From Planctomycetota bacterium (GTDB taxonomy: Bacteria; Planctomycetota; B15-G4): DNA of 64,000 bases. Below, in pieces: positions 5,676-56,445 of the stretch. The position numbers and the translations under genes were made by a program. The stretch spans positions 19,374 through 83,373 of the forward strand of contig JAJDEO010000041.1 in NCBI GenBank assembly GCA_029259745.1. The letters run 5' to 3'. The notes below the pieces were generated by a model that worked only from the letters and a program-made list of their open reading frames with translations, ran no database searches and was not told the DNA's origin. The first letter of the stretch is position 1; each line of letters starts with the position of its first letter.

Positions 5676-6091
5676 CGTGCGCACTGCGTCGCGAGCTCGC
5701 CGTCGTGGCGGCTCGTGACGAAGCCCCCAGGCGCCCGACGCGCTGGCCGAAGACGGTGAAGCCTGACGATTTCGTTCGTCTGCGGTCAGCCCGTCCCGAT
5801 CGCGGGAGATCCGCGGACGTCCCCTCAGACCGCCGACTGCGGGCTCGTCGAGGCCTTCCAATGCCGCGAGTTGGCTCGTTGGGCGTCGCGACACGCTAAA
5901 TCACGTCGGCGAGGGGACCCGCGCGCCGCCGGTTTCCGTTCTCCTTCATGGGGGACGTCCTCTTCCTCCTCCGTGGACTCCCCCGCCCATGTGGCCGTCC
6001 CTCTGGTGTCATCCCGATCGCCAGGCCCGCTACACTCCGCCGGCTCCTTTCGAGCTCGCAATCCCCCGCAGTGACAACTGAGAGCCATCCG

Positions 6092-7350: not shown

Positions 7351-8664
7351 ATGAAGAAGTCGATGACCGCACTGGCCTGGATCTGCGCCGTCACCGTCGC
7401 CGCGGCACCGGGCGACGACCCCGAGAGTCGCGTCTGGCAAGGCGAGGGCGAAAAAGCCGACGAGCGGTACGGTGCGTCGGTTTCCACGGCCGGTGACTTC
7501 GACGCCGATCAGCGCGACGAGTACCTCATCGGCATCCCCGGTCACTCGAAGAAGGGCGTCGACGCAGGCGCCGTCGTGATCGTCTCGGGGCGCACCGGCA
7601 AGGTGCTCCACACGCTCTACGGCAAGAAGGCCGGCGACCGCTTCGGACATTCCGTCGACGGTCTGCGGGACGTCAACGCCGACGGTTTCGCTGACATCAT
7701 CGTCGGGGCGCCGGGACACAAGGACGGCACCGGCGCCGCGTATGTCTACCTCGGCAAGAAGGCCAAGGAGCGCGTCGTGCTCGAAGGGACGACCGTCGGC
7801 GAGCAGTTCGGCTGGAGCGTCTCGGCGGCCGGTGACATCAACCAGGACGGATTCTTCGACATCATCGTCGGATCGCCGAGCTACGACGGCGCGGCCGGCG
7901 ACGACTGCGGACGCGCGACCGTCTTCTCCGGCAAGTCGAAGGGCAAGAAGGCCATCGAACTCTACAGCTGGGAAGGCGAGACGCCCGGCGCGCAGTTCGG
8001 TTGGTCGGTGACGCACACCGAGAACATCTACCGCACGGACCTGGACACGACTCCGATCACGCAGCATGTCGCCGTCGGTGCGCCCGGAGCGGCGGCGAAG
8101 TCGGGCGGCGTCGCGAAGGGACTCGTCTACATGTACGACGGCCTCAACGGCGAGTTGCTGCGCACGATCGAAGGACGACGTAAGGGCCAGCGTTTCGGCC
8201 ACGCGATCCACGCCGCCGGCGACGCCAACAGCGACAGCTTCGGCGACCTCATCGTCGGCTCCGACTCCGTCCCCGGCGGGGCGGACCTCATCTCCGGTCG
8301 CAACGGCAAGGCCCTGCACCGCTTCGAACCCGAACGTCCCGACATGCGCTTCGGCTGGGCCGTCGGCGGCGGTGGCGACTTCGACAACGACAGCTTCGAC
8401 GACGTCGTCGTCAGTGCGCCGGGTGAGTTCAAACCCGGCGACACGACCGACCCCGATCGCGTGCCGTACGTGCGCGCCTACTCGGGCAAGACGGGCAAGC
8501 TACTGCTCGAGATGCGCGGCGGACCGCTCGAAGATCGCTTCGGAATCTCCGTCGCCGTCGCGGGCGACAACAACGTCGACCGCTACGACGAGATCATCAT
8601 CGGCGCCGACCAGATCGGTGTCCGCGCAGGCTTCGTCGAGGTGCACTCACTGCACCCCGAGTGA
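7351..8664 (+). CDS. Secreted FG-GAP repeat protein, a paralogue of the upstream gene
   Basis: The signal peptide is MKKSMTALAWICAVTVAAAP. It has the same FG-GAP repeat architecture as 6092..7324 and starts 26 nt downstream of that gene. Confidence 0.8.
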   Translation: MKKSMTALAWICAVTVAAAPGDDPESRVWQGEGEKADERYGASVSTAGDFDADQRDEYLIGIPGHSKKGVDAGAVVIVSGRTGKVLHTLYGKKAGDRFGHSVDGLRDVNADGFADIIVGAPGHKDGTGAAYVYLGKKAKERVVLEGTTVGEQFGWSVSAAGDINQDGFFDIIVGSPSYDGAAGDDCGRATVFSGKSKGKKAIELYSWEGETPGAQFGWSVTHTENIYRTDLDTTPITQHVAVGAPGAAAKSGGVAKGLVYMYDGLNGELLRTIEGRRKGQRFGHAIHAAGDANSDSFGDLIVGSDSVPGGADLISGRNGKALHRFEPERPDMRFGWAVGGGGDFDNDSFDDVVVSAPGEFKPGDTTDPDRVPYVRAYSGKTGKLLLEMRGGPLEDRFGISVAVAGDNNVDRYDEIIIGADQIGVRAGFVEVHSLHPE

Positions 8665-17460: not shown

Positions 17461-17656
17461 AGTGGCTCCGCGACACCAATCGGAGCGGGCAGCGGGAACC
17501 TCTCATCGCGAGATTTCGCGCCCGAATGGCCCCTTTGAGGGCGCTCGAGTCCAAAGAATCCCTCCGACGCGTGCTGGTGTCAGGTGACCTGGCCATCGCG
17601 TCGTCAGGATGCGACTCTGGCCGATCGCGAGCCGCCGCGCCGAGAGAGCAGCCCCC

Positions 17657-18499
17657 ATGTCACGACCTTCCAACCCTTGGGTTGCTCTCATCTGCCGTCG
17701 ATCTGCTGTCGAGGGCGTGCAGCGGATCGTGTCGGCCGGAATGACCGCGGGACTCACCGTCGTCCCCGTCCACCCCGACGCGGCCTACGGACAGCCTGCG
17801 CCGGCCGTCGTCCTCCCGCGGCTTCCGTCGGGCGGAAGCCTGGGCCAACTCGGAGCCTGGGCCGCCTCGGGCGTGCCGTACGTGAATGGACCGGCAGCGA
17901 TCGCGGCCGTGCACGACAAGCCCGCGGCTCTCAGGCGCCTCGCGGCGGCAGGCATTCCGGTGCCACCGACCGTCGTCGTCACGCGCGACGCAGCCGCGAG
18001 CCTCGACGAACTCCCGGGTGACCGCTTCATCGTCAAGCCGGTCCGCGGCGCCGCTGGACGCGGTGTGAGCGTCGGATGGACGCGCGCCGAGGCTCGCGAC
18101 CGCGCCGCCGCCTTCGCTGACATCTCGGGCCCCGCGCTCGTCCAGCCGCAGCTCGGCAGCGGGATCGATCGCCGCATGTTCGTCGTCGACGGGCGCATCG
18201 TCGCGACCATGGAACGCGTGCCCGCGCCCGGCGACGGACGCGCGAGCCTGCTGTACGGAGGAACGGCACGTCGCTTCGCACCCTCACAGGAAGAGCACGC
18301 GCTCGGGCTTTCCTGCGCGAGCGCGCTCTCCCTCGACATCGCCGGCGTCGACCTGCTCGTCACCGATGACGGACCGCTCGTCCTCGAAGTGAACGTATGC
18401 CCCGGCCTGAAGGGGATCGAGGCCGCCACCGGCGTGGACGTCGCGGCAGCGATTCTCGAAGCCTGCCGCTCGCGTCTCACCCACGAGACAGCGAGTTGA
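17657..18499 (+). CDS. ATP-grasp domain protein (RimK / alpha-L-glutamate ligase-like)
   Basis: It starts MSRPSNPW. The ATP-grasp core includes FIVKPVRGAAGRGVSV…LVQPQLGSGIDRRMFVVDGRIVATMER…GVDLLVTDDGPLVLEVNVCPGLKGIE. Confidence 0.7.
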   Translation: MSRPSNPWVALICRRSAVEGVQRIVSAGMTAGLTVVPVHPDAAYGQPAPAVVLPRLPSGGSLGQLGAWAASGVPYVNGPAAIAAVHDKPAALRRLAAAGIPVPPTVVVTRDAAASLDELPGDRFIVKPVRGAAGRGVSVGWTRAEARDRAAAFADISGPALVQPQLGSGIDRRMFVVDGRIVATMERVPAPGDGRASLLYGGTARRFAPSQEEHALGLSCASALSLDIAGVDLLVTDDGPLVLEVNVCPGLKGIEAATGVDVAAAILEACRSRLTHETAS

Positions 18500-18602
18500 A
18501 GGAATCGGCGTTCCGGGTCATGCTGGCCCCGCGTTCGAGGGGGGTGGGACGCACTCGTATCGGCCGCCGCACGGGGGGCCAGCGAGCGAGCGAAAGGGAC
18601 TC

Positions 18603-19364
18603 ATGACCATCACCGCGATCGTCAGCGACATCCATGGCAACCTGCCGGCGCTGGCCGCGGTGCTCGACGACGCACGCGAACGCGGTGCGAGTCGGCTCTG
18701 GTGCCTCGGCGACATCGTCGGCTACGGCGCCCATCCGCAGCAGTGCGTCGAGCTGCTGCGCGAACACTGCGCGCACATCATCAAGGGCAACCACGAGCAG
18801 GCCGCGATCGATGGCCCGTTCGGGTTCAACCCGCTCGCGGCGGCGGCGATCCGCTGGACGCAAGGCCAGTTCCTCGACGAGGCCGGACAGCCCGACGAGA
18901 CGATGCAGTTCCTCATCGAGCTCCCCGAGCGCATCGACGACGACAACGCCGTGCTCGTACACGGTTCGCCGACGCATCCTCTCGACGAGTACCTCTTCGA
19001 GCAGGACACACTCGACAACGCACGCGACCATGCGCCGAAGCTCGTCCGCTGCTTCCAGCGCATCGACCGCCCGTGCTTCGTGGGACACACGCACGTGCCC
19101 GGCGTGATCGACGCGAACTTCACCTGGACGTCGCCCGCCCAGTGCCCCGACGGTTACGACACCGAACGCCGCCCGTGCATCGTCAACGTCGGGTCGGTCG
19201 GCCAACCGCGCGACGGCGACACCCGCGCGTCGTACGTCCTCTTCGATGGTGAGGTCGTCACGTTCCGCCGCGTCGAATACGACGTCGAACGCGCCGCGAA
19301 CTCGATCTTCGCCAACGACGAGCTGCCCGACCTTCTCGGCCAACGCCTCATCGAAGGCTGGTGA
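18603..19364 (+). CDS. Metallophosphoesterase (calcineurin-like, YfcE/Icc-type)
   Basis: It carries the metallophosphoesterase motifs SDIHGN, GDIVGYG, GNHE and GHTHVPG. Confidence 0.8.
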   Translation: MTITAIVSDIHGNLPALAAVLDDARERGASRLWCLGDIVGYGAHPQQCVELLREHCAHIIKGNHEQAAIDGPFGFNPLAAAAIRWTQGQFLDEAGQPDETMQFLIELPERIDDDNAVLVHGSPTHPLDEYLFEQDTLDNARDHAPKLVRCFQRIDRPCFVGHTHVPGVIDANFTWTSPAQCPDGYDTERRPCIVNVGSVGQPRDGDTRASYVLFDGEVVTFRRVEYDVERAANSIFANDELPDLLGQRLIEGW

Positions 19365-19403
19365 CAGCGCGCACGAGCAACGAGCTCCTCGGAGGGCGTC
19401 AGC

Positions 19404-19781
19404 ATGTCGAAGGCACCAACGGTCGTGCGCACGTTCGATAGCGCCGTCTTCGCACATCTCGCGCGTGGGCGGCTCGAGTCCGAAGGCATCGAGAGCTTCA
19501 TCGTCGACGAACACCAGGTGACGAACAATCCGCTGACTGCCATCGCTGTTGGCGGGATCAAGCTCGTCGTCGCCGAGGATGACCTTCACGCGGCGCGCGA
19601 GCTTCTGGACCAACGCATCGAAGTCAGCGACACGTGCGCCGCCTGTGGGTCGACGAACATCGAACGCAACGCACGAGGCCGCCGTCTCGCTTTCTTGACG
19701 CTGATGTTCGCCCACATTCCCATCGGCCGCGCGAAGACCAAGCTCCGATGCGACGACTGCGACCACGCCTGGCGCGAGTGA
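19404..19781 (+). CDS. Hypothetical protein with a DUF2007-like N-terminal domain and a C-terminal zinc ribbon
   Basis: The 125-aa protein has an N-terminal domain resembling the putative signal-transducing DUF2007 fold. The C-terminus carries CAACGS…CDDCDHAW, a CxxC…CxxC arrangement. Confidence 0.5.
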   Translation: MSKAPTVVRTFDSAVFAHLARGRLESEGIESFIVDEHQVTNNPLTAIAVGGIKLVVAEDDLHAARELLDQRIEVSDTCAACGSTNIERNARGRRLAFLTLMFAHIPIGRAKTKLRCDDCDHAWRE

Positions 19782-19811: not shown

Positions 19812-21353
19812 TCAGTCGAGCGAGAGTTCGAAGCCGTTGGTCGACGTGACTCCCGTCGCTGCCGAACCGTCGGCGAGGAACGCCTGGCTGTACACGGTGA
19901 TGCCCGCAGCCGTGGGCGGAACGACGATGTCGCCCGACAGCACCCCCGTCTGCGACAGCGTGAACGGAATCGAGATAAGCCCCGTCGGTGACAGGTAGAA
20001 CGGACAGCCCTTCACGGCGAGCCCGTCGGCCGTCGCGAGATTGACGAAGAGCAGGCCGAGCGCGCCCGACGGGCCGCCCATCACCGTGTAGTCGAGCTCG
20101 CTGCCGACGTCGGGGTGTCCGACGACGTCGTGCCACGGAGCCTCGGACGAGCCAGACCCGCACGGCTCTCCGAAAGGCACACCGCGCATGTCGAAGACAA
20201 AGCCGCGTACGTTCGTCGTCGTCGATCCGATCACGACGTCGTCGCCGTCGAGGTCGATCGCCGTCATGCTCGAGACGCCCGACGCGAAACGTTGCTCCAG
20301 GCGAACTCCCTGAGTCCACGTCCCGCCTTCACGGTTGAACACGACGGTGAACGGGACGCCCGTCCCCAGCTCACGAAGTCCGCCGACCACGGCGAACTGA
20401 CCGCTCAGTGCGACGTCGCGACCGAAGTCAGCCGGCTGAGTCGCAGACTCGTCCGTGGTCAACGTCGCGACCTCCGTCCAGACCCCGGCGATCCGCTCGA
20501 AGACGAGCACGGCACCCGGCGAGCTGCTCGGCGAGCCCTTGGCACCGACGAGGATCGTCGAGTCGTGGACATCGACCGCCGAAGAGACAGCGAGGTTCGC
20601 GCCGGCCAGCAGCGGCGAGGTGAGTTCGGCCGTCTCGGCCCAACTTCCCGCGACGCGCTCGAAGACGTGCACTCGTCCTGGTCCCGCAATCGGGCCGCCC
20701 GACGCGGCCACCACCGCGACGTCCCCACGGATCGACACGCCAGCGCCCGCGAACCCGAAGTCCGTCCCGCTGCTCGGGATCAACTTCGCGACGTGATTCC
20801 ACGCGCTGCCGTCGTACTCGTAGAGATGGGCGGCACCGGCGTCGACACCGTTCGCGTTGTCGTCGTTGGGCTCGCCGACGAGCAGTCGATTGCCACTCAG
20901 GGCGATGCTGCGGCCGAAGTTTCCGAGCGGCTCGGGATCGCTCGCGTCGACGTTGCCGATCTGGGCCCAGACGCCCGCCACGCGCTCGTAGACGTAAGCG
21001 GTTCCGGCGCCCATGTTCGGCGCCCCCACGGCAACGCGCCCGACACTCGCAGCGACGTACCCGAAACCGTCGGACGGAAAGGCACTCACTCCGTTCAACG
21101 TGTCGACTCGGATCCAATCCCCCGCGATTCGTTCGAACACTTCGACCAAGGACACACTCGGTCCACCGACGAACGCCGTATCACCGGAGATGGCGACGGA
21201 CGTTCCAAGCGAGACCGCGCTGCCAGCCCCGGTGAGCAGGATCTCGTCCTGAAACTTCGTCGGTGTCACCTGTGCGAAGGCCGTCGAGGAGAGAGTCATC
21301 GCGACGAGACCCGCCGTGACGTGTCGCCGGCAAGAGCAAGAGAGAGAAACCAT
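19812..21353 (-). CDS. Secreted FG-GAP-like beta-propeller protein with a conserved C-terminal domain shared with two proteases
   Basis: The ORF-track ORF was trimmed to MVSLSCSCRRHVTAGLVAMTLSSTAFAQ (signal peptide). Repeats read VGAPxxGxGxAYVYER, FGxSIALSGNRLLVGEP and similar. The last ~100 aa (GGPSGALGLLFVNLA…GITVYSQAFLADGSAATGVTSTNGFELSLD) align with the C-termini of the proteases at 29771..32755 and 54625..56445. Confidence 0.7.
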   Translation of the reverse strand: MVSLSCSCRRHVTAGLVAMTLSSTAFAQVTPTKFQDEILLTGAGSAVSLGTSVAISGDTAFVGGPSVSLVEVFERIAGDWIRVDTLNGVSAFPSDGFGYVAASVGRVAVGAPNMGAGTAYVYERVAGVWAQIGNVDASDPEPLGNFGRSIALSGNRLLVGEPNDDNANGVDAGAAHLYEYDGSAWNHVAKLIPSSGTDFGFAGAGVSIRGDVAVVAASGGPIAGPGRVHVFERVAGSWAETAELTSPLLAGANLAVSSAVDVHDSTILVGAKGSPSSSPGAVLVFERIAGVWTEVATLTTDESATQPADFGRDVALSGQFAVVGGLRELGTGVPFTVVFNREGGTWTQGVRLEQRFASGVSSMTAIDLDGDDVVIGSTTTNVRGFVFDMRGVPFGEPCGSGSSEAPWHDVVGHPDVGSELDYTVMGGPSGALGLLFVNLATADGLAVKGCPFYLSPTGLISIPFTLSQTGVLSGDIVVPPTAAGITVYSQAFLADGSAATGVTSTNGFELSLD

Positions 21354-21440: not shown

Positions 21441-21787
21441 CACGCGCGTGACCATGCGACGAAGCTCCTCCGCTGCTTCCAGCGCATCCACCGACCGGGC
21501 TTCGTCGGACACACGCACGTGCCCAGCGTGATCGACGAAAACTGCACGTGGACGTCGTCCGCCCAGTGCCCGGACCGGTACGGAACGGAACGCCGCCCTT
21601 GCGTCGTCAGCGTCGGTTCGGTCGGCCGACCGCGCGACAGCGACACGCCTACGTGGTACGTCCTCTTCGACGGCGAAGTCGTGACGGTTCGCTGCGTCGA
21701 ATGAAACGTCGAGCGCGCGGCCAACTCGATCTTCGCCAATGAAGAGTTCCCCGACCCCGCGGCCAACGCCTCATCGAAGGCTGGTGA
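21441..21787 (+). pseudogene. Degenerate duplicate of the 3' end of the metallophosphoesterase gene (copy of 19021..19364). It carries a frameshift and an in-frame TGA.
   Basis: It shows about 85% nucleotide identity to 19021..19364 over roughly 345 bp, with small indels. Its translation HATKLLRCFQRIHRPGFVGHTHVPSVIDENCTWTSSAQCPDRYGTERRPCVVSVGSVGRPRD… ends with a premature stop (…RCVE*). Confidence 0.75.
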
Positions 21788-29770: not shown

Positions 29771-32755
29771 ATGCATCCGTCGTGGAACGTGCGCATGTTG
29801 CTCAAGTCAACTCTTGCCCTCTCCCTCGTCGCGACGGTCGTCACCGCTCAGGTCGACCCCGACGGCACACCCGACGCGCGCATGCCGCGCGTCGCCACCC
29901 AACAGTTCCTCGATGCGGCCGGCCCGAACTGGCAGCTGCGTTGGTCGGACGATCGCAACGCACCGCGCCACATCTGGGGCGGTTCGGTCCAGCTCGACGT
30001 CGACGGCTCCAACGCCTCGTACGAACAGCAGGCGCGGATCGTCGTCGACTCGCTCGGTGAAGCGCTCGGCTACGATTCGTCCGTGCTGCGCACCGACAAG
30101 GTCAAGGCGATGAACCTTGCGCGGATCGGTTCGTCCGACAAGGTCGTCGTGAAGTTCATGCAGGAAGTCGACGGCGTCGAAGTCTTCGGCGGACACGTCA
30201 ACGTCATCATGAGCGCCGACGGCAAGCTGCTCTCGGTCGACAACCAGGGCCTTCCGAACGCCGACCGCATCAACGCGATCCCGTCGCTCGATCCGAACGA
30301 CGCACAGGGCGCCGCGGCTGCGCACTTCTTCGAAGTGACGGGCCAGCCGGTTCTCTCGGTCGAGTTCCAGGACTACGTCATCTATCCCGGCAAGGAGTTC
30401 GCCGGCAAGCGCCAGGTCACAGCCAAGGCCGCGTACGTCTTCCACGTGCACGCGCCGGACATGCGCACCGGCGACCTTCCCGTCGCACGCGCTGTTGTCG
30501 TCGACGCCCACACAGGTGCGGCGATCGACGATTGGAGCCTCGTCCATGCGATGGACGTGAGCGGCACCGTCTCGGGCCTCGGTCAGGGCGGGCTTCTTCC
30601 CGACGGCCTCTCCGGTGAAGTCACGCTTCCGCTCCAGGACGTGCGCATCACTTCGCCGGGCAACCCGACGGTCTACACGGACATCAACGGCAACTTCAAC
30701 ATCCCCGGCGCTACGGGCAACACCCAGGTGACGGCGACGTTCAACGGCCTGTTCTCGGACGTCGAGGACAACAGCGGTTCGAACATCTCCGTGACGCAGA
30801 CGGCCAGCCCGTCGTCACCCGCGAACATCTTGATGAACCCGGGTGCAAGCGAGAACGAAGTGGCTGAGGTCAACATCCACCACCACGTCAACATCATGCG
30901 TGACTGGATCAAGAGCGTCGATCCGTCGGACGACACGTTCGACTTCCAGGTCGACTCCAACGCCAACATCGGCTTGAACTGCAACGCCTTCTACAACGGC
31001 ATCTCGATCAACTTCTACGTTGAAGGTGGCGGTTGCCAGAACACGGGCTTCTCGACGGTCGTCTACCACGAGAATGGTCACTGGGCGAACGACCTGTACG
31101 GTTCGTTCAACGGCAGCGACGGTTTCGGTGAAGGTGGCGCAGACGTCTGGGCCATGTTCATCTCCGACAACCCGATCGTTGGCGACGGCTTCTTCGGCCC
31201 CGGCTCGAACATCCGCACCGGCCTCAACACCAGCCAGTTCTGCGGTGACGCGAACCCGGGCTGCTTCGGTCAGGTCCATGCCGACGGCCAGGTGCTCATG
31301 GGTGCCTTCTGGAAGTGGCGCACGAACGTGAAGAACAACCTCGGCGCGGCGCAGGGCATCGCGACGTCCGACCTGCTGATGCTCAGCTGGTACCAGGCGT
31401 TCAACCAAACGCAGATCAAGTCGATCATCGAGGAACAGATCCTCGTGCTCGACGACAACGACGGCAACATCAACAACGGCACGCCGAACTACGCCGAGAT
31501 CGACGCGGGCTTCCAGGAGCAGGGCTTCCCCGGCTTCGAGCTTCCGCTCTTCGACTTCGCGCACACCGAGCTCGGTGTGATCGGTTCGGAAGGCCCGGTG
31601 TCGGTCGACGTCACGGTGACGGAGGAGCAGGGTTCGATCGCGTCGGTCAACCTCTTCTACTCGACGAACAACGGCTCGTCGTTCCAGTCGGTGGGCATGA
31701 ACCCGCAGGGTGGCAACCAGTTCAACGCTGACATCCCCGGCGTCGTTTCGCCGGCCGTCGTGAAGTACTACTTCGAGGCGACGGACTCGGGTGGCTCAGG
31801 TTCGAACACGTTCCCGAAGGGTGCACCGGAAGCCACGTTCAACTACGACGTCGGCGTGCTGACGGTTCGCGAGTCGAACGGTTTCGAGGGTGGCTCGGAT
31901 GACGGCTGGACTCACGTCGAGATCCAGACGCAGGACGACTGGCAGCGCGGCACACCGGTCGGTGCATCGGGTGATGCGCCGTCGGCGTTTGCAGGCTCGA
32001 ACGTGTGGGGCAACGACCTCGCGCCGTCGGGCTTCAACGGTGCCTATCAGAACGACGTCCACAACCGCCTCACCTCGCCCGCCTTCAACTTCTCGGGTGA
32101 AGAGAACCTGCGTCTGCGCTTCCAGCGCTGGCTCACGGTCGAGTCGGGTCAGTTCGACCAGGCTCGTGTGCTCGTCGACGGCAACGAGGTGTTCGTGAAC
32201 GACTTCAGCACGGACACGATCGACTCGGCGTGGACGAAGATGGACATCGACATCTCGTCGATTGCCGACAACGATTCCAACGTCACGGTCGTCTTCGAGT
32301 TGGTCAGTGATGGCGGCGTCGTCTTCGGTGGCTGGAACATCGACGAGTTCGAGATCGTTTCGCTCGAGCCCGTCGGCACGACGTACATCGAGTACGGCAC
32401 GGGCACGCAGGGCTTCGGCGGTCTGACGCCGTCGCTGTCCGGCAACGGCGGCACGGTCATCGGTGGTCCGGTCGACATCGACCTCGGCCAGGCTCGTCCG
32501 TTCGCGCCCGGTGGACTGTTCATCAGCAACGCCCAGGCGTCGTTCCCGGCGCTCGGCGGCACGTTCCTCGTCAACCCGCCGTTCACGCAGCTCGGCTTCA
32601 GTGCCAACGCGCTTGGCGCGGCCAGCTTCAACGGTGTGCTGCCGAACGACGTGACGCTGATCGGTTCGCAGGTCAACCTGCAGGCGTGGCTCCAGGATGC
32701 CGACGGCCCGAGTGGCTTCGCGGCTTCCAACGGCTTGCAGTTCACGATCCAGTGA
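29771..32755 (+). CDS. Secreted zinc metalloprotease (HExxH; M4/M36-type catalytic domain with an FTP/PepSY propeptide), with MAM/jelly-roll-like domains and a conserved C-terminal sorting-like domain
   Basis: The signal peptide is MLLKSTLALSLVATVVTAQ. The PepSY-like propeptide reads VKFMQEVDGVEVFGGHVNVIMSADGKLLSVDNQG. The zinc site is VVYHENGHWAND (HExxH). Its GC (about 62%) is lower than the flanking DNA. The C-terminal 100 aa resemble the C-termini of 19812..21353 and 54625..56445. Confidence 0.7.
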   Translation: MHPSWNVRMLLKSTLALSLVATVVTAQVDPDGTPDARMPRVATQQFLDAAGPNWQLRWSDDRNAPRHIWGGSVQLDVDGSNASYEQQARIVVDSLGEALGYDSSVLRTDKVKAMNLARIGSSDKVVVKFMQEVDGVEVFGGHVNVIMSADGKLLSVDNQGLPNADRINAIPSLDPNDAQGAAAAHFFEVTGQPVLSVEFQDYVIYPGKEFAGKRQVTAKAAYVFHVHAPDMRTGDLPVARAVVVDAHTGAAIDDWSLVHAMDVSGTVSGLGQGGLLPDGLSGEVTLPLQDVRITSPGNPTVYTDINGNFNIPGATGNTQVTATFNGLFSDVEDNSGSNISVTQTASPSSPANILMNPGASENEVAEVNIHHHVNIMRDWIKSVDPSDDTFDFQVDSNANIGLNCNAFYNGISINFYVEGGGCQNTGFSTVVYHENGHWANDLYGSFNGSDGFGEGGADVWAMFISDNPIVGDGFFGPGSNIRTGLNTSQFCGDANPGCFGQVHADGQVLMGAFWKWRTNVKNNLGAAQGIATSDLLMLSWYQAFNQTQIKSIIEEQILVLDDNDGNINNGTPNYAEIDAGFQEQGFPGFELPLFDFAHTELGVIGSEGPVSVDVTVTEEQGSIASVNLFYSTNNGSSFQSVGMNPQGGNQFNADIPGVVSPAVVKYYFEATDSGGSGSNTFPKGAPEATFNYDVGVLTVRESNGFEGGSDDGWTHVEIQTQDDWQRGTPVGASGDAPSAFAGSNVWGNDLAPSGFNGAYQNDVHNRLTSPAFNFSGEENLRLRFQRWLTVESGQFDQARVLVDGNEVFVNDFSTDTIDSAWTKMDIDISSIADNDSNVTVVFELVSDGGVVFGGWNIDEFEIVSLEPVGTTYIEYGTGTQGFGGLTPSLSGNGGTVIGGPVDIDLGQARPFAPGGLFISNAQASFPALGGTFLVNPPFTQLGFSANALGAASFNGVLPNDVTLIGSQVNLQAWLQDADGPSGFAASNGLQFTIQ

Positions 32756-48288: not shown

Positions 48289-49047
48289 TCAGGGTGCTGC
48301 CGGCGTGAATCCGGTGGGCTCGGCGGAGAGAACGAGCCATTCACCCATCATCGCGACATCGCCTGTCACGATCAGACTTTCGCCGACGAAGTCCAGCACC
48401 TCGGCGTTCACCGTCCGGCCGTCGCTGCCGACGAGCAGGTAGACGTCGGCGTCGTCGCCGTTGGTCACGACGAAGAGCGGCGGGATCCCGCCGGCGATGC
48501 AGTTGATCGCGCAGGCGCGATGGGTCTTCAGGCGAGCGGGCTTCATCACGCCGAGCCAGCACTTGCTGTCGACGATCTCACCGACGAGGCGTCGGCTGCC
48601 GAGCAACCTCCGCGCAGGTTCGGCGCGGCTCGACGGCGTGCCGTCGAGGATTTCCACGCCGCCGTCTGCCACCTCGATCAGCGTCACGGCGCCGTTGTAG
48701 ACGAGCGTCCCGTCGATGCGCGCGCGCTGACCTTCACGCCCGTCGACAAGGTCATCCGCGCCGTGCTTGCCGAGCTTTACGAGCAGGTAAGACGACACGC
48801 TGGCGCCCTCGCTCGACGGCCGCGTGACCTCGAGCATCGGCACGGGATCGCTGCGCAGCACGCCCTCGAACGTCTTGACCTCGAGGAACTCGAAGACCGC
48901 GTCGTTGAAGGGGTCTTGCTCGGCCGTCAACCCCGCAGCCAGGGCCACGGCAACGACGATGAGAGCCACGGCGACGCGTCGCATCGTGCCACCCACCGAA
49001 ACCGGCGCGCGGTCTTGGTAGCCGACGTAGAAGTCGTCCTTCGTCAT
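48289..49047 (-). CDS. Hypothetical membrane-anchored protein, the last gene of the Rieske operon
   Basis: Its start sits in an ATGA overlap with the upstream gene's stop. The N-terminal anchor is RRVAVALIVVAVALAAGL, and a conserved-looking Cys pair reads CAINCIAGG. Confidence 0.5.
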   Translation of the reverse strand: MTKDDFYVGYQDRAPVSVGGTMRRVAVALIVVAVALAAGLTAEQDPFNDAVFEFLEVKTFEGVLRSDPVPMLEVTRPSSEGASVSSYLLVKLGKHGADDLVDGREGQRARIDGTLVYNGAVTLIEVADGGVEILDGTPSSRAEPARRLLGSRRLVGEIVDSKCWLGVMKPARLKTHRACAINCIAGGIPPLFVVTNGDDADVYLLVGSDGRTVNAEVLDFVGESLIVTGDVAMMGEWLVLSAEPTGFTPAAP

Positions 49048-50078
49048 GCCTCGCCTCCGTGATGAGCATCCCTGGCCGGCCGCGGCTTGGCGTCGATCCA
49101 GACGCGCCCGTCACGCAGCTCGACCGCGAACGTGGGCACCGACTCGGTGAAGGGCGCGGGTGAGACGCCGGTCGTGCGCTCGTACTCGTAGCCGTGCCAC
49201 GGGCAGGTGACGCAGTCGCCGATGAGACGTCCCTCGCCGAGCGGGCCGTTCTGATGCTGGCACGCGTTCGACAAGGCAAAGACCTCGTCGCCGTCGCGAA
49301 AGATCGCGACCCGCTCACCGCTGAGACAGGCAACGTGCCCGTGCCCATCGATCGGAAGTTCGTCGAGTGCGATGACGTCGACGAACCCGTCGCGTGGTGC
49401 AGCCAGACTTCGATCGCGACGCCCCGTCTCGCGCAGCCCCGCGAAGAGGTGCAGCGCCGCGAGGCCGGCGAAACCGACCACCACGAAGCCGCTCAGCAGT
49501 GGACTCGACTCGGCCTGCAGGGCGCCCAGCGCCACGTGCATGACGAGCGCTGCGTAGGCCACGTAGACGAGCATGTGCAGCGCCTTCCACGTCGGCGCCG
49601 AGAGGTTCGCGAGCCAGAAGTCGTGACTCGTCGCGGCCATGAACGCGAGAATCACGAGCGCGAAGAAACCGAGCGTCTGGAACGGGAAGCGCATCAGATC
49701 GTCGTAGTGAGTGTTCGACGCAAAGAGACTCACGATCGGATTGAGGTCGCCCTGTGTGTGGTACATGAGCATCGACAGAGCGCCGTGCACGAGCGCCATG
49801 GAGAACATCGCCACGCCCATGTGCCGGCGGTTGTAGAGCAGCGGAAGCAGGCGCGGTGCGAGGCGACACGCCGGGCCGATGGCGAGGATGACGTGGAGCA
49901 GCACGAACGCGCCGGACCCGAAGCCGCGGATCATGAGTACCTCGGCGCTCGCTTCGGGGTGCGTCGTCAGGCCGATCGCGATGAAGACGGCGAGATAGAG
50001 CACGATGCCCGTGACGAGCGCGGTGTCGTAGAGGCGCTTCTGACGATTCCAACCGACCGCGCGGTAGTTCAGGCTCAT
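49044..50078 (-). CDS. Ferric reductase-like transmembrane (heme-b type) domain fused to a C-terminal Rieske [2Fe-2S] domain
   Basis: The ORF-track ORF was trimmed to MSLNYRAVGW, with GGAGGG 6 nt upstream and an ATGA overlap with the upstream gene. It has 6 predicted TM helices with conserved His residues. The Rieske motifs are CQHQNGPL…CPWHGYEY. Confidence 0.7.
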   Translation of the reverse strand: MSLNYRAVGWNRQKRLYDTALVTGIVLYLAVFIAIGLTTHPEASAEVLMIRGFGSGAFVLLHVILAIGPACRLAPRLLPLLYNRRHMGVAMFSMALVHGALSMLMYHTQGDLNPIVSLFASNTHYDDLMRFPFQTLGFFALVILAFMAATSHDFWLANLSAPTWKALHMLVYVAYAALVMHVALGALQAESSPLLSGFVVVGFAGLAALHLFAGLRETGRRDRSLAAPRDGFVDVIALDELPIDGHGHVACLSGERVAIFRDGDEVFALSNACQHQNGPLGEGRLIGDCVTCPWHGYEYERTTGVSPAPFTESVPTFAVELRDGRVWIDAKPRPARDAHHGGEA

Positions 50079-50563
50079 CGCGAGCCCTCCACCGGATACT
50101 CGACGTGCAGGACGATCTCGTCGTGGCCGAGGCTGTAGAGCGCGAGCATTCCGCGTTCGACGTTCGCGCCGGGCGGCAAGGTGAACGCGGCCTGGCGATC
50201 TGCAGACATCGCACCGAGCAACACGGCGCCCTCGAGCATCGAGTCGCCGGACACGGCGCGGATGTCGCGCCAGTACACGAGCAGGTCGGGACGTGGGATC
50301 CCGCGACGCGTCAGAACGACGCCCCAGTTGCCGTCCTCGAGGCGACGCCAGTCGGCGTCCCAGACATCGCCGCTGACCGTGTTGCGCGACGTCGTTCGAC
50401 GCACGGACGTTCCCCACGAGGCCAGCTCGGCGCGGTCGACGACGAGCTCGCCGGGAACGACACCCGGATGCCGTACGGACAACGCCGACGCCAGGCCGTA
50501 GCCCACCAACGAAGTCACCAACACCCACAGCACGACGTGTCGACGGCGCCCCGAGCGGATCAT
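50075..50563 (-). CDS. Hypothetical membrane-anchored protein
   Basis: The ORF-track ORF was trimmed to MIRSGRRRHVVLWVLVTSLVGYGLASALS, with AGGAGG upstream. It has ATGA overlaps at both ends. Confidence 0.5.
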   Translation of the reverse strand: MIRSGRRRHVVLWVLVTSLVGYGLASALSVRHPGVVPGELVVDRAELASWGTSVRRTTSRNTVSGDVWDADWRRLEDGNWGVVLTRRGIPRPDLLVYWRDIRAVSGDSMLEGAVLLGAMSADRQAAFTLPPGANVERGMLALYSLGHDEIVLHVEYPVEGSR

Positions 50564-50826
50564 CGCTCGCCTCCTGCCGCGCGACGATGCGCATTCGACT
50601 CGACGCGCGGCGTCGTGCGCCCGCCAAACCAACGCAGCATCAGTGCGGGCCAGAGCAGCGTCGCGCCGGGCAGCAGGAGCACGCGGAACCCCCACGTTCC
50701 CTCACGCGCTGCGGGATCGATCGCAGCGGCGCCTTTCCATGCGAACGGCACGGCGAACAGGACCCCGATCGCGAGGTAGATCCCGAGCGTCGTGGCGAAT
50801 CCGCCTGCGAGTGCTTCGATGTCCAT
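50560..50826 (-). CDS. Small membrane protein of 88 aa
   Basis: It has two predicted TM helices (TLGIYLAIGVLFAVPFAW and FRVLLLPGATLLWPALML) and is translationally coupled to the downstream gene. Confidence 0.45.
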   Translation of the reverse strand: MDIEALAGGFATTLGIYLAIGVLFAVPFAWKGAAAIDPAAREGTWGFRVLLLPGATLLWPALMLRWFGGRTTPRVESNAHRRAAGGER

Positions 50827-50842
50827 GGCTGCCAGCTCGCGT

Positions 50843-52774
50843 TCAGATGAGGTCGGTGTCGGTGATCACTTCGACGAGCGCGGGACCGTCGTGCGCCAGG
50901 GCGCGCGTGAGGGCGTCATCGAGCTCATCGGCCGACGTGACGCGCAGACCGAGCGCGCCACAGTTCTCGGCGAACTGCGCGAAGTTGGGGTTGTGCAGCG
51001 AAGTTTGCCACACCTCCCACTCACCGGCGCGCTGCTCCTTGCTGATCTTCCCGAGCTCGCTGTTGTTCAACAGCACGTGCGTGATGTTCATGCCGTACTT
51101 CACGGCTGTCGTGACCTCGCCCATGTACTGACCGAAACCACCGTCGCCACTGATCGAGACGATCGTGCGCTCTGGCGCGGCGCACCAGGCACCCATCGCG
51201 GCCGAGAAGCCGAAACCGATCGACCCGAGGTAGCCCGACATGAGCACCGACTGGCGCGTGCACTCGAAGTAGCGGCCGAAGGAGTAGGTGTTGTTGCCGA
51301 CATCCACGGCGAGCACGGCGTCATCGGGGACGTGGCGCGTGAGGGCGGCGAAGACCGCCGTCGAGTTGACGCCACGACCGCGATCGTCGACGAGCCGTCG
51401 CTGTTTCTCATTGCGCCAGATCTCCCAGCGCTCGGCGATCTCGCCCTGACGGTTCGTCGCCGGCGTGTGGGCAGCAAGCGCCTCGTGCATCGCCGCGCAC
51501 GTTGCACCGATCTCGCCCCAGACGGGGATGTCGATGGCGTGGAAGCGTCCGAGCGCGAGGCGATCGAAGTCGACCTGGATCGTCTTGATCTTCGACGTGA
51601 TGCCGGTGTGGTTCGAGAACGATGCGCCGAAGACGACGAGCAGGTCGGACTCGTTCATGAACCAGCTCGCAACCGGCGTCCCACTGCGTCCGAGGACACC
51701 GCACCCGAGTGGATGACGATCGGAGATGAGCCCCTTGCCCTTGAACGTCGTGAGCACAGGAGCACCGAGACGTTCAGCCAACGCAATGACGGAGTCGGTA
51801 TGTTCGCGCGCTCCGTAGCCCACGATGAAAACGGGGCGTTGCGCGTCACTCATCGCCGCGAGCGCTTGGCTCAGCGCGTCGGCCGACGGGGCGATCGCGA
51901 CGTCCGCCAGTCGGCCCTCGGGAGTGCCGGCCTCGGCGTCGGGCACCTCGATGTTCTGAACTTCGTCGGGGAAGATGAGGTGCGAGACATCGCGCTGCAC
52001 CAGCGCATGCTTGACCGTGAGGTTCGCGAGCTCGGCGTGCTTGCTGTTCGGCAGCACCGTCTGGCTGAAGCACGTGACGGCCGCGAACGCCGAGGCGAGG
52101 TCGACCTCCTGGAAGTTGCCCGGACCGAGCACCTGCGTCGCCACCTGGCCCGTGAGCGCGATGGCGGGCACGCGATCCGAACGCGCGTCCCAGAGCCCCG
52201 TGAGCAGATTCGTCGCGCCGGGACCAGCAATCGCGAGGCACGCGGCGGGTCTTCCCGTGAGCTTGCCGAAGCCCGACACGGCGAAGGCCGCGGCGCCCTC
52301 GTGCCGCACACCGATGTACGTGAGCTTGCCCGTGACTTCGAGGCGGCGCAGCGCATCGGCGAGGCCGAGGTTGCTGTGGCCGACCATCCCGAAGACATGG
52401 GTGACGCCCCAGTTCACGAGCGTCTCGGCGATCACATCCGACACCGTGCGCACGTGCGCGACATCCTCTTCGACACCGACATAGACGCTGCCGTCACGCA
52501 CCTCCGTCGGGAACACCTCGACACCATCATCGAAGCCCGGCGCCTTGCCCGTGCAGGGATGGTAGTCCCAGCCGTGCCAGGGACAGCGCAGCAGGCCGTT
52601 CTCGATCGAGCCCTCGCCGAGCGGCCCGCCCTGGTGCGGACAGCGGTTCTCGAGGCAGGTGTACTCACCCTCCAAGTGCGTCAGCGCGAAAGAGTGTGTG
52701 CCTGCCGTCACGGTGCGGACGCGACCTTCGGGAACGTCGGCAGCGTCGGCGACCTTGATCCACTGCATCGTCAT
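50843..52774 (-). CDS. Rieske [2Fe-2S] domain fused to a thiamine-pyrophosphate-dependent enzyme (pyruvate oxidase / acetolactate synthase family)
   Basis: The N-terminal Rieske motifs are CPHQGGPL…CPWHGWDY. TPP-enzyme domains follow: an N-terminal Pyr region (GVTHVFGMVGHSNLGLADAL), a middle domain, and a C-terminal TPP-binding region (GSIGFGFSAAMGA…ISGDGGFGQYMGEVTTAVKYGMNITHVLLNN). Confidence 0.7.
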   Translation of the reverse strand: MTMQWIKVADAADVPEGRVRTVTAGTHSFALTHLEGEYTCLENRCPHQGGPLGEGSIENGLLRCPWHGWDYHPCTGKAPGFDDGVEVFPTEVRDGSVYVGVEEDVAHVRTVSDVIAETLVNWGVTHVFGMVGHSNLGLADALRRLEVTGKLTYIGVRHEGAAAFAVSGFGKLTGRPAACLAIAGPGATNLLTGLWDARSDRVPAIALTGQVATQVLGPGNFQEVDLASAFAAVTCFSQTVLPNSKHAELANLTVKHALVQRDVSHLIFPDEVQNIEVPDAEAGTPEGRLADVAIAPSADALSQALAAMSDAQRPVFIVGYGAREHTDSVIALAERLGAPVLTTFKGKGLISDRHPLGCGVLGRSGTPVASWFMNESDLLVVFGASFSNHTGITSKIKTIQVDFDRLALGRFHAIDIPVWGEIGATCAAMHEALAAHTPATNRQGEIAERWEIWRNEKQRRLVDDRGRGVNSTAVFAALTRHVPDDAVLAVDVGNNTYSFGRYFECTRQSVLMSGYLGSIGFGFSAAMGAWCAAPERTIVSISGDGGFGQYMGEVTTAVKYGMNITHVLLNNSELGKISKEQRAGEWEVWQTSLHNPNFAQFAENCGALGLRVTSADELDDALTRALAHDGPALVEVITDTDLI

Positions 52775-52798
52775 CAGGAGCCCTCGTGCGGGGAATGG

Positions 52799-54433
52799 TC
52801 AGCCGACACCGGCGAAACGCACGCCCGTCAGACGCGCCGTGTCGTGATCGAACGTCGTCAGGTCGCCGATCGTGAAGTCGGAGAGGTTCGAGCGCCCGGC
52901 AGCTCGCGCCAGCACCTTCATCAGCCCGACGCTCGCGCCGAACCAGTTCGCGAGGCGCTCGGCCGACTTCTCGACATCGAGCCGCGCGCGGAGGTGCGGC
53001 TTCTGCGTCGCGATACCGACGGGACAGTTGTTCGTGTGGCAGGCGCGCATCGCCTGACATCCGATGGCCTGGATCGCGGAGTTCGCGAGGGCAACGCCGT
53101 CGGCCCCGAGAGCCATGGCCTTCACGAAGTCGGCCGGGCGGCGCAGGCCTCCGGTGGCGATCAGCGTGACACCTTCGGCGCGGCGCGCGTCGAGGTGCTT
53201 GCGGGCGCGCGGGATCGCAATGAGCGTCGGGATCGAGATGTGGTCGCGCAGCACCGTCGGTGCGGCGCCCGTTCCGCCGCCGCGGCCGTCGAGGATGATG
53301 TAGTCGACGCCGCTCTCGAGGGCGACGTCGATGTCGTCCTCGATGCGATTGGCGGAGAGCTTGAAGCCGATCGGGATGCCGCCCGTCACGTCGCGCACTT
53401 CTTCGGCGACGCGCCGGAAGTCAGCCGAACGCACGAGGTCCTTGAAGCGCGCCGGCGAGATGGCGTCCTTGCCTTCTTCGAGCCCGCGCACCTCGGCGAT
53501 GCGCCCCGTCACCTTGTGACCCGGCAGGTGTCCGCCGGTTCCGGTCTTGGCCGCCTGGCCGCCCTTGAAGTGAAAGGCCTGCACGCGCTCGACCTTCTCG
53601 AGTGCGAAGCCGAACTTCGCCGACGCGAGCTCGTAGAAGTAGCGTCCATTCGCCTCCTGCTCTTCGGGCAGCATGCCACCCTCGCCCGAGCAGATCCCCG
53701 TGCCGGCGCGTTCGGCGCCGCGCGCGAGGGCGACCTTGGCCTCCTCGGACAGAGCACCGAAGGACATATCGGAGACAAAGAGTGGGATGTCGAGCACGAG
53801 TGGCTTGCGCGCATTCGGGCCGATGACGAGCTGTGTGCCCACGTCCTCGTCGTCGAGCAGCGGAAGCCGCGAGATCTGCGCCGGAAGCACCATGATGTCG
53901 TCCCAGCTCGGCAGACCGGGGACGGGGACGCCCATCGCAGCGACGGGGCCATGGTGTCCGGTCTTCGAGAGACCGTCGCGCGCGAACTGGTGGATCTCAC
54001 GCGTGTGCGGCTCGTCGTCCGTGCCATGCACATCGACGTAGTTCCCGAGGTAGGTGTCGCGGTCGTACGGCTGGGGATTCTCGTTGCCCCAGCTGGCCAC
54101 CTCGTCGCCGTTCACGAAGACCTCGTCCCCGTCGCGCCAAGCCTCGAAGCGCTTCAGCTTCTCGCTGTTGTTGTAGGCACTCACGCCGCTGTCGAGACGG
54201 TAGTCCCAGTCGTGCAGGCCGCAGATGAGGTCCTCCCCGTCGACGTGTCCGTCGGCGAGCAGGGCGCCGCGGTGAAGACAGCGACCGTAGAGCACCGAGA
54301 CGGCGTCATCGTGACGGACTACGACGAGGTCGACGCCGGCGACGAGGGCGTGGGCAGGCTGGCGATCTCCGAGCTGCGACCAGTCTGCGACGCGAACGCC
54401 CGAGTGCGGGGATGACGACATGCGGGACTCCAT
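52799..54433 (-). CDS. Rieske [2Fe-2S] domain fused to a glutamate synthase (GltB/GltS) FMN-binding domain-like oxidoreductase
   Basis: The ORF-track ORF was trimmed to MESRMSSSPH. The Rieske motifs are CLHRGALL…CGLHDWDY. A GltS FMN-domain follows (LDIPLFVSDMSFGALS…GEGGMLPEE…FKGGQAAKTGTGGHLPG…GGLRRPADFVKAMALGADGVALAN). Confidence 0.7.
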   Translation of the reverse strand: MESRMSSSPHSGVRVADWSQLGDRQPAHALVAGVDLVVVRHDDAVSVLYGRCLHRGALLADGHVDGEDLICGLHDWDYRLDSGVSAYNNSEKLKRFEAWRDGDEVFVNGDEVASWGNENPQPYDRDTYLGNYVDVHGTDDEPHTREIHQFARDGLSKTGHHGPVAAMGVPVPGLPSWDDIMVLPAQISRLPLLDDEDVGTQLVIGPNARKPLVLDIPLFVSDMSFGALSEEAKVALARGAERAGTGICSGEGGMLPEEQEANGRYFYELASAKFGFALEKVERVQAFHFKGGQAAKTGTGGHLPGHKVTGRIAEVRGLEEGKDAISPARFKDLVRSADFRRVAEEVRDVTGGIPIGFKLSANRIEDDIDVALESGVDYIILDGRGGGTGAAPTVLRDHISIPTLIAIPRARKHLDARRAEGVTLIATGGLRRPADFVKAMALGADGVALANSAIQAIGCQAMRACHTNNCPVGIATQKPHLRARLDVEKSAERLANWFGASVGLMKVLARAAGRSNLSDFTIGDLTTFDHDTARLTGVRFAGVG

Positions 54434-54624
54434 GGTCGAGGAAACGTCTCGGCATCGTAATGTCCACCGCGAGCGATACCTCGAAGGTGTCCTGTGATGA
54501 CGAATGGACCGCTCGGTGACGGCGAATCCGCGAGATTCGAACGCCAAGCCCACGGGGAAGCGGTTTCGACATAAGATCAGCGCCGTGGCGTCCGTTCCCC
54601 GAAGCGCGATCTCCCTCGCGCGAC

Positions 54625-56445
54625 GTGCGCTCGTTTCTCTCCCGAAGAGGCCCGCTCATGGTCTGTCCCGTTCTCCGTCGTTGGCGCTCGGCGCTGGCGA
54701 TCTCGCTCCTCGCGTGCTTTGCCCAGGCCGGCACCGAGTCACTCCCCGGCCTCGTCAAGGCGGCGCCGCGCGGACTGTCCGAAGCCTTCGACGTCGGGGC
54801 CGCGACGACGCAGCACCTCGCGCTGCCCTTCCACGCCACGGCGCCGGTGTCGATCCCCGTGATGCTCGGCGGTGAGTCCTACACGCTCGACGTCGCGCCC
54901 TATTCGGTGCGCTCGTCGAAGTTCGAGGTGCTCGTGCAGGTCGAGGACGGATCGCTGATCCCGTTCGACGTCGGCGCGCCGACGACCGTGCGCGGTGTCG
55001 TGCGCGACGTGCCCGGCTCGATCGTCGCCGGCAACATGTCCGAAGGTCGTCTCACGGCAACGGTCGGCCTGCACCCCGACGACATGCTGTGGGGTATCCA
55101 GCCGCGCTCGGACGTCGACAGCACGGCGCCCGCGTCGGAGCACATCGTCTACTCGAGCCTCGACCGTCTCGCGAGCGATCACTCCTGCGGCAACGATCAC
55201 GCCACCGAGCGCGACGACGTCGACCACGGCCAGACGCCCGCCGCGTCCGACCTCGGCGACGGCGGCAACTTCGTGATCTGCGAGATCGGCATCGACACCG
55301 ACGTGCAGTATTACAACCTCAACGGCAGCTCGATCACGCAGACCGAGAACGACATCGAGTCGATCATCAACTCGACCGATGCGATCTACTCGATCGACGC
55401 GCAGATCCGCTACGAGATCACGACGATCATCGTGCGCACGGCCGAGCCCGACCCCTACTCGTCAACGACGAGCCCGAGCAGTCTGCTGAACCAGTTCGAC
55501 AGCCACTGGTCGTCGAGCCAGCAGGGTGTCCAGCGCGACATCGCGCATCTGTTCACGGGTCGCGACCTCGATGGCGGCGTCATCGGCATCGCGAAGCTGT
55601 CGCAGATCTGCAGCCAGAACAACGGCTACGGCCTGAGTCAGTCGCGCTTCACGAGCAACTTCACGAGCCGCGTCGCGCTGACGGCCCATGAACTCGGACA
55701 CAACTGGTCGGCGTCGCACTGCAACAGTGTCTCCGACTGTCGGATCATGTGCTCGGGGCTCGGTGGCTGCACGGGTGTCGTGACGTCGTTCGCGCCGGTG
55801 AGCATCAACTCGATCAACAACGAGAAGAACTCGTCGGGCTGCCTCGGCCCCGGTTCGCCGCCGGCCCCGCCGTCGATCAGTCAGGTCTCGCCCGAAGCCA
55901 ACAATCTCTTCGGCCCTTCGATCACGCCGATCGAGATCATCGGCCAGAACCTGTCCTTCGTGACGTCGGTGACGGTTGATGGCGTCGTGTTTTCCCAAGG
56001 ACAGTTCGACGTCGTGACGAACGCGCGCATCACGCTGACGCCGCCGACGCCGACGGTGCTCGGAACGGTCAACGTGCAGCTCGACAGCCCGTTCGGCGCG
56101 AGCAGTGTCGCGTCCTTCGAGTGGACGGCACCACCGACCATCCTGTCGACGTCTGGCATCGCCGTCTCGACGTTCGATCACGCATGGAATTACGGCGGCC
56201 CCGTGGCCGACACGGCCTTCCTCGTGATCAGCCTCGCGCCGGGCGTCGTCCCCTTCCAAGGCTTCGACGTCCTCGCGGCGCCGATCGTGCTCAACATCGA
56301 CACGCTCGACGACTTCGGCCTCGGCGACTACACGCTCAACCTGCCGGGCGCCGCGTCCGGCGTGACGTTCTACTCACAGGTCGTGACGTACGACACGGCT
56401 GTGACCGGAACGAGCAACGTGAGCCAGACGCTGGTTGTCTTCTGA
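54625..56445 (+). CDS. Secreted reprolysin/ADAM-like (M12B-type) metzincin metalloprotease with a C-terminal sorting-like domain
   Basis: A signal-peptide-like N-terminus is present. The zinc motif is HELGHNWSASHCN (HExxHxxGxxH). The C-terminal 100 aa resemble the C-termini of 19812..21353 and 29771..32755. Its GC is lower than the flanking DNA. Confidence 0.65.
   Translation: MRSFLSRRGPLMVCPVLRRWRSALAISLLACFAQAGTESLPGLVKAAPRGLSEAFDVGAATTQHLALPFHATAPVSIPVMLGGESYTLDVAPYSVRSSKFEVLVQVEDGSLIPFDVGAPTTVRGVVRDVPGSIVAGNMSEGRLTATVGLHPDDMLWGIQPRSDVDSTAPASEHIVYSSLDRLASDHSCGNDHATERDDVDHGQTPAASDLGDGGNFVICEIGIDTDVQYYNLNGSSITQTENDIESIINSTDAIYSIDAQIRYEITTIIVRTAEPDPYSSTTSPSSLLNQFDSHWSSSQQGVQRDIAHLFTGRDLDGGVIGIAKLSQICSQNNGYGLSQSRFTSNFTSRVALTAHELGHNWSASHCNSVSDCRIMCSGLGGCTGVVTSFAPVSINSINNEKNSSGCLGPGSPPAPPSISQVSPEANNLFGPSITPIEIIGQNLSFVTSVTVDGVVFSQGQFDVVTNARITLTPPTPTVLGTVNVQLDSPFGASSVASFEWTAPPTILSTSGIAVSTFDHAWNYGGPVADTAFLVISLAPGVVPFQGFDVLAAPIVLNIDTLDDFGLGDYTLNLPGAASGVTFYSQVVTYDTAVTGTSNVSQTLVVF

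Follow-up and report, generated by a model that had tools for sequence, protein, structure and literature searches.

A terminal, single-copy domain on unrelated exoproteins of uncultured marine Planctomycetota and its possible role in docking or anchoring

The region considered here is a 64,000-nucleotide stretch of a Planctomycetota genome (assembly GCA_029259745.1, contig JAJDEO010000041.1, positions 19,374 to 83,373), referred to below as the window. Three of its genes encode secreted proteins whose N-terminal parts are mutually unrelated and whose C-terminal tails carry the same module (Table 1). One is an M36/FTP-like metalloprotease in which Pfam recognizes FTP, CBM_56-like, and InhA-like MAM regions and for which NCBIfam gives a weak match to myxo_dep_M36. 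The others are an FG-GAP_2 propeller protein and a metzincin matched by Pfam Reprolysin_5/3/2/4 with E-values down to 1e-19. All three open reading frames (ORFs) begin with Sec-type or signal-peptide-like N-termini, which read MVSLSC...AFA/Q in the FG-GAP protein and ...CFA/QA in the reprolysin-like protein. The FG-GAP ORF is identical to the retrieved protein P0001, whose database gene model starts further upstream, at ~21455.

Table 1. Passenger genes of the window and the module copies at their ends.
Feature	Position in the window	Strand	Remarks
Passenger gene 1, secreted M36/FTP-like metalloprotease	29771..32755	+	994 aa; signal peptide ends VTA/Q
M36/FTP-like tail, module copy	32381..32752	+	begins ~20 aa further upstream than in the preliminary description; Cys-free variant
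Passenger gene 2, secreted FG-GAP_2 propeller protein	19812..21353	-	Pfam FG-GAP_2 8e-25
FG-GAP_2 propeller tail, module copy	19815..20180	-	both conserved cysteines present (FGEPC... and KGC-PFYLSP)
Passenger gene 3, secreted reprolysin-like metzincin	54625..56445	+	TIG-like domain precedes the module
Reprolysin-like metzincin tail, module copy	56128..56442	+	divergent subtype

A preliminary description of the window had proposed that the three proteins end with alignable segments of 90–100 amino acids. Pairwise comparison by the Smith–Waterman method (last 110 residues, 2000 shuffles) gave z = 7.3 for the FG-GAP tail against the M36 tail and z = 5.3 for the FG-GAP tail against the reprolysin tail. 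There was no significant pairwise similarity between the M36 and reprolysin tails (z = -0.6), so that this comparison alone links the three tails solely via the FG-GAP tail. A profile hidden Markov model (HMM) built from non-window proteins only, the leave-out HMM, recognized the M36 tail with 116.3 bits (E 3e-34, ORF residues 913–1036), the FG-GAP tail with 102.5 bits (E 6e-30), and the reprolysin tail with 50.8 bits (E 6e-14), against at most 12 bits for shuffled tails; no further ORF of the 64-kb window was matched. The three tails are copies of one homologous domain of ~120 residues. The common segments first noticed are real and exceed what composition gives, and the module is longer than was proposed.

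The motif G.T.YSQA, which had been singled out in the three tails, is the most conserved polar motif across the family. The GGP motif, also thought to be common to all three, occupies the same alignment column in the FG-GAP and reprolysin tails, but the GGP of the M36 tail lies in another column. The reprolysin tail represents a subtype that lacks the YG.G lead-in strand, stands after the TIG-like domain, and ends in ...VVF. Three reprolysin relatives (P0034, P0066, and P0090) and two fragments (P0032 and P0033) carry the same subtype. With other M36 tails the M36 tail shares 40–46% identity; with the FG-GAP and reprolysin tails of the window it shares 17–24%. The tails group with passenger type, and the fusions of module and passenger are therefore old.

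A first, word-indexed search with the three tails gave no match. An exhaustive HMMER search with a three-sequence profile against 1.84 billion cluster representatives yielded 100 proteins at E <= 1e-3, and a second profile, made from 60 tails, added 84 proteins with E-values down to 1e-24. The family members are named “hypothetical” or after their passenger domain only. No Pfam family matched the three window tails at E <= 10, and 60 diverse tails compared with NCBIfam (E <= 10) and Pfam (E <= 1) gave scattered single chance matches only, none of them to a type IX secretion system (T9SS) C-terminal domain (CTD) model. The type B model (TIGR04131/PF13585 CHU_C) was matched neither by the three window tails nor by the 60. 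The best result of a PDB sequence-profile search, the C-1027 apoprotein, was non-significant (E = 0.022). The domain family is thus previously unannotated, having no Pfam, NCBIfam, or PDB-sequence match. The early impression that the tails fall outside the T9SS CTD, PEP-CTERM, and MYXO-CTERM signatures was borne out, since none of these models, nor any other in Pfam or NCBIfam, matched them.

The family consensus is YG.GcaGsGG..P.L...G.p..G....l.v.gGppgA.g.LfvGla.As.P..GgTLLV.P.....P.tLDg.G...l...lPP.l.G.t.ylQAf..DagaP.GfaatNGLe.t. Two cysteines, one in the “YG.GC” strand and one in the “GC.LLV” strand, covary: 34 sequences have both, 56 have neither, and two are mixed (Fisher p = 3.5e-23). 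A second, rarer pair covaries likewise (both present in 10; p = 6e-6). The sequences are 50%-identity cluster representatives, and because of shared ancestry both p-values overstate their independence. Within the window, the FG-GAP tail has both cysteines of the main pair, and the M36 and reprolysin tails lack them. The covariation is the pattern expected of a structural disulfide, which would join the N-terminal “YG.GC” strand to the central “GC.LLV.P” strand.

Structure prediction gave concordant results. AlphaFold2 models, computed from the family alignments, of the FG-GAP tail (predicted local distance difference test score, pLDDT, 94.3; predicted template modelling score, pTM, 0.87) and the M36 tail (pLDDT 96.4; pTM 0.88) cover 124–130 residues, are all-beta, and each contain ten strands in identical order. 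The module is therefore predicted to be a ten-strand Ig-like beta-sandwich. For neither model did Foldseek find a PDB match at E <= 1e-3. Its nearest neighbours, all non-significant with template modelling (TM) scores of ~0.4–0.57, are sandwiches of a generic Ig-like type, namely the ester-bond adhesin repeat domains, insect beta-GRP CBM39, LILRB1 Ig domains, TRAP-alpha, and the neocarzinostatin/C-1027 apoprotein. The CBM39 domain reached an E-value of about 1e-2 and a TM of 0.45–0.57 (0.5–0.57 on the target), with no sequence signal. T9SS CTD structures were absent from the top 50 PDB matches of either model.

The arrangement of the module was counted in 183 retrieved module-bearing proteins. 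In 179 of them it ends no more than 10 residues before the C-terminus; no residue follows it in 112 of these 179, and three or fewer follow in 174. Internal and tandem copies were both absent from the 183 proteins, so the module does not recur at internal positions as an ordinary repeat would. The placement is not “strictly C-terminal” as had been stated, because in four proteins (P0031, P0048, P0062, and P0144) the module is N-terminal and joins straight onto the signal peptide. Of the complete proteins, at least three (P0159, P0081, and P0091) consist of a signal peptide and the module alone, and P0087 comprises a signal peptide, the module, and a Gly/Pro-rich linker only. The last residue is proline in 82 of the 179 proteins (endings such as ...RIP, ...TVP, and ...TTP), while in the three window copies it is D, Q, and F; protection from carboxypeptidases and a recognition feature are both possibilities for this bias.

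The passengers are extracellular and belong to more than 15 unrelated Pfam families. Peptidases are represented by reprolysin, matrixin M10, M36-like, trypsin-like, and (weakly) subtilase domains. Non-peptidase propellers make up the majority of the passengers, and glycoside hydrolases are not conspicuous; the non-peptidase set includes three FG-GAP families, FG-GAP/VCBS, SBBP, BNR, and Kelch propellers, right-handed beta-helices, Laminin_G_3, Spond_N, SGL, DUF7948, and others. A crude rule detected signal-peptide-like N-termini in 37 of 51 complete-looking multidomain members, and most of the remainder are either gene models with an evident truncation or proteins whose leader escaped the rule. 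The module is an optional add-on, because two FG-GAP propellers of the window have signal peptides and no module. These integrin-type proteins are encoded by adjacent genes (5948–7324 (+) and 7351–8664 (+)) and end right after the propeller; the same kind of propeller does have the module elsewhere (e.g., P0011, P0027, P0042, and P0053).

The named sources are all uncultured Planctomycetota metagenome-assembled genomes (MAGs), with one exception. This is P0114, a module-bearing fragment labelled “Gammaproteobacteria bacterium” MAG at NCBI, for which a binning error or transfer is possible. As far as sources are named, the lineage specificity that had been suspected holds, and the module is a single-copy, terminal-only domain family of uncultured marine Planctomycetota. 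The four closest relatives of the window's M36 protease, orthologs of it, come from the marine Planctomycetota MAGs NAT19, ALOHA_ZT_47, OFTM220, and binchicken_co31_419. All four end in the module, which in two of them takes a divergent form (~32 bits). A fifth M36 relative, from an unclassified bacterium (CAZELM010000007.1; locus L009, 2279–6820 (+)), lacks it; its tail instead runs from a region with weak MAM and PKD matches through a long Pro/Thr-rich linker to an unannotated C-terminal domain that closes with ...IEFGYY.

The module is also dense along the genome. Three copies lie in the 64-kb window, and in the fetched loci of up to 20 kb further copies accompany the one for which the locus was fetched: one each in L002, L005, and L007 and one or two in L004. 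This density points to a large paralogous set. Locus L004 (Planctomycetota MAG GCA_054874155.1, 20 kb) has two strong copies on FG-GAP-type proteins. In addition, its Peptidase_S8 subtilase gene (17570–19444 (+)) shows a weak partial match at the end (21 bits, HMM positions 27–105), which may be a further divergent subtype of the module. Neither the window nor the fetched loci showed genes for secretion machinery, whether a sortase, an outer-membrane translocon, or another kind, and the T9SS genes SprA, PorV, and PorU were likewise absent from this material, which is all that was covered.

We infer an extracytoplasmic location from the signal peptides and the covarying cysteines; a secretion or sorting role would be read from the architecture only. 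In the preliminary description, the module was taken for a candidate secretion or sorting domain; of this reading, the homologous terminal module on unrelated passengers stands, while strict C-terminality does not, and sorting machinery was not found in the window or the loci. The reading preferred here, judged by analogy from architecture and held with a probability of only about 0.4, is that the module serves to dock or anchor diverse exoproteins. It would fold after Sec export, and a disulfide between the “YG.GC” and “GC.LLV.P” strands would stabilize many family members. The folded, non-catalytic module would then bind a common partner in the cell envelope, which could be a protein of the surface or a glycan. 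Such binding would keep otherwise unrelated exoproteins at the cell surface, as dockerin or SLH modules do.

Docking is preferred because the module occurs also N-terminally and alone, and because no new secretion machine is required. Forms with the module at either end and the stand-alone proteins are easier to reconcile with a binding unit that suffices by itself than with a C-terminal export signal, and they argue against an export signal that is strictly C-terminal and cleaved. From the copy density, a general address function seems likelier than one tied to a particular substrate. Several observations nevertheless weigh against docking. No partner, receptor, or conserved neighbour gene was found across the window and the fetched loci. 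The best-conserved residues are mainly Gly, Pro, and hydrophobic ones, together with Q, D, and N, and no conserved aromatic platform is obvious in the family alignment. The copy density is itself biased by locus ascertainment and by the clustering of exoprotein genes. Finally, the 98% C-terminal bias is stronger than would be expected of a freely placed binding module, which hints at a role for the free C-terminus or for the order of export.

The likeness to dockerin and SLH modules concerns the proposed function only: a non-catalytic chain-end module on diverse exoenzymes, mostly C-terminal and sometimes N-terminal, that docks to a surface partner. Both of these are helical, dockerin being a small module that binds Ca. 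There is no sequence or fold relationship between them and the module, and no cohesin-like partner was found in the loci. In distribution the module comes closest to the T9SS CTD and in preferred mechanism to dockerin and SLH, and it belongs to neither.

A rather doubtful alternative is that the module is an ordinary accessory domain with no role in localization, which would serve lectin-like or CBM-like substrate binding, protein–protein interaction, or as a stabilizing Ig-like end-cap. Domains such as PPC, PKD, and FN3 sit at the ends of many exoenzymes. The generic Ig-like sandwich would suit such a role, with non-significant neighbours that include the beta-1,3-glucan-binding CBM39 of beta-GRP, adhesin repeats, and LILRB1, and so would the stand-alone and N-terminal forms. 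The grouping of tails by passenger family also looks more like stable fusions of long standing than like a tag that is freely shuffled. On the other hand, the passengers, with few glycoside hydrolases in evidence, are too heterogeneous for one substrate, and the copy density is unusually high. Accessory Ig-like, PKD, and FN3 domains are commonly internal or repeated, whereas this was the case in none of the 183 proteins. CBM39, the ester-bond adhesin repeats, and neocarzinostatin/C-1027 are the best structural neighbours, none at E <= 1e-3; adhesin domains form tandem internal repeats, while the module is single and terminal. Two particular assignments were rejected: an ordinary adhesin Ig-like repeat, given the complete lack of internal and tandem copies, and membership of PPC (PF04151), given the lack of a Pfam match and the predominance of non-peptidase propellers among the passengers.

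It is unlikely that the module is an export signal resembling the T9SS CTD, that is, a sandwich recognized in the periplasm by a putative planctomycete outer-membrane translocon that would carry the passenger across, after which the module would be cleaved and/or replaced by a lipid or glycan anchor. The T9SS CTD follows a like logic: an Ig-like beta-sandwich stands at the C-terminus of many unrelated cargoes that depend on Sec (PMC4804311, PMC11285876). As with the type A CTD (Por_Secre_tail, TIGR04183/PF18962), paralogues share low identity and many copies occur per genome. The extreme C-terminal position of 98% of the modules, with three residues or fewer after them, and the many paralogues per genome stretch would also fit. 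Furthermore, a distantly related Myxococcota M36 family has a C-terminal sorting tag, MYXO-CTERM, as its defining feature (NF038112, myxosortase-dependent M36), so that M36-type cargo is tagged at a C-terminal position elsewhere.

Several differences from the T9SS count against this reading. The T9SS CTD is a compact seven-strand (3+4) Ig-like sandwich of ~60–100 residues (PMC11285876, PMC4804311), whereas the module is predicted to have ten strands, spans ~120 residues, and in part of the family would have a conserved disulfide. Neither TIGR04183 nor PF18962 matched the tails, and the structural comparison retrieved no T9SS CTD among its leading matches. The T9SS is described as confined to Bacteroidetes (PMC5445135), while the carriers here are Planctomycetota. 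The place of the T9SS CTD is invariably C-terminal; that of the module is nearly so, being C-terminal in 179 of 183 proteins and N-terminal in four, and at least three proteins are without cargo. Moreover, no translocon or sortase gene stands near any copy in the window or the fetched loci. A wider form of the same idea, also quite unlikely, would make the module the cargo signal in a pathway peculiar to Planctomycetota, which would export proteins across the outer membrane or attach them covalently to the surface and would handle ~100 or more proteins per genome. Such a pathway would be the functional counterpart of the T9SS CTD/PorU or exosortase systems.

The module shares with PEP-CTERM and MYXO-CTERM its C-terminal position, its restriction to a lineage, and its presence on many secreted proteins. 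Those signals consist of a short motif, a transmembrane helix, and a basic tail. The module differs in being a globular domain of 120 residues with no hydrophobic helix, 0–3 residues after it in 174 of 179 proteins, and no NCBIfam match. As nothing follows it, it is not a transmembrane-anchored sortase-type signal. The weakest explanation, a chance or compositional likeness of Gly/Ala/Thr-rich C-termini in a high-GC genome, could appeal to the z of -0.6 between the M36 and reprolysin tails and to the empty word-indexed search, but has a negligible probability and is excluded by the homologue searches, with hundreds of independent homologues, and by leave-out HMM scores of 51–116 bits against 12 or fewer for shuffles, and the structure predictions are confident and concordant.

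In Planctomycetota, the outer-membrane transfer and retention of a very large exoprotein complement are poorly understood, and the marine lineages that carry the module are uncultured. A terminal single-copy module on proteases, propellers, and adhesin-like proteins provides a concrete, testable handle on planctomycete protein sorting. A profile of the module would define the predicted surface and secreted proteome of the carrier organisms, and phylogenetic profiling against it could reveal a partner or machinery. A new domain family entry is warranted because every member is now “hypothetical” or annotated by its passenger only.

Two further features of the window deserve mention. A direct repeat of 300 nucleotides, 85% identical between its copies (19018–19317 and 21442–21741, starts 2424 nucleotides apart), flanks a DUF2007 gene and the module-bearing FG-GAP gene on both sides. 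The first copy is the 3' half of an intact metallophosphoesterase gene (18603..19364), and the second is a remnant of metallophosphoesterase coding sequence upstream of the FG-GAP gene; the arrangement resembles a segmental duplication or insertion scar. Elsewhere (49044–54553 (-)), three genes in a row each combine a Rieske [2Fe-2S] domain with an unusual fusion partner. The gene at 49044–50627 (-) encodes Ferric_reduct and Rieske, that at 50843–52774 (-) joins Rieske to a complete TPP-enzyme (acetolactate-synthase-like) protein, and that at 52799–54553 (-), judged by eye only, seems to have a Rieske-like N-terminus on a glutamate-synthase-type FMN domain.

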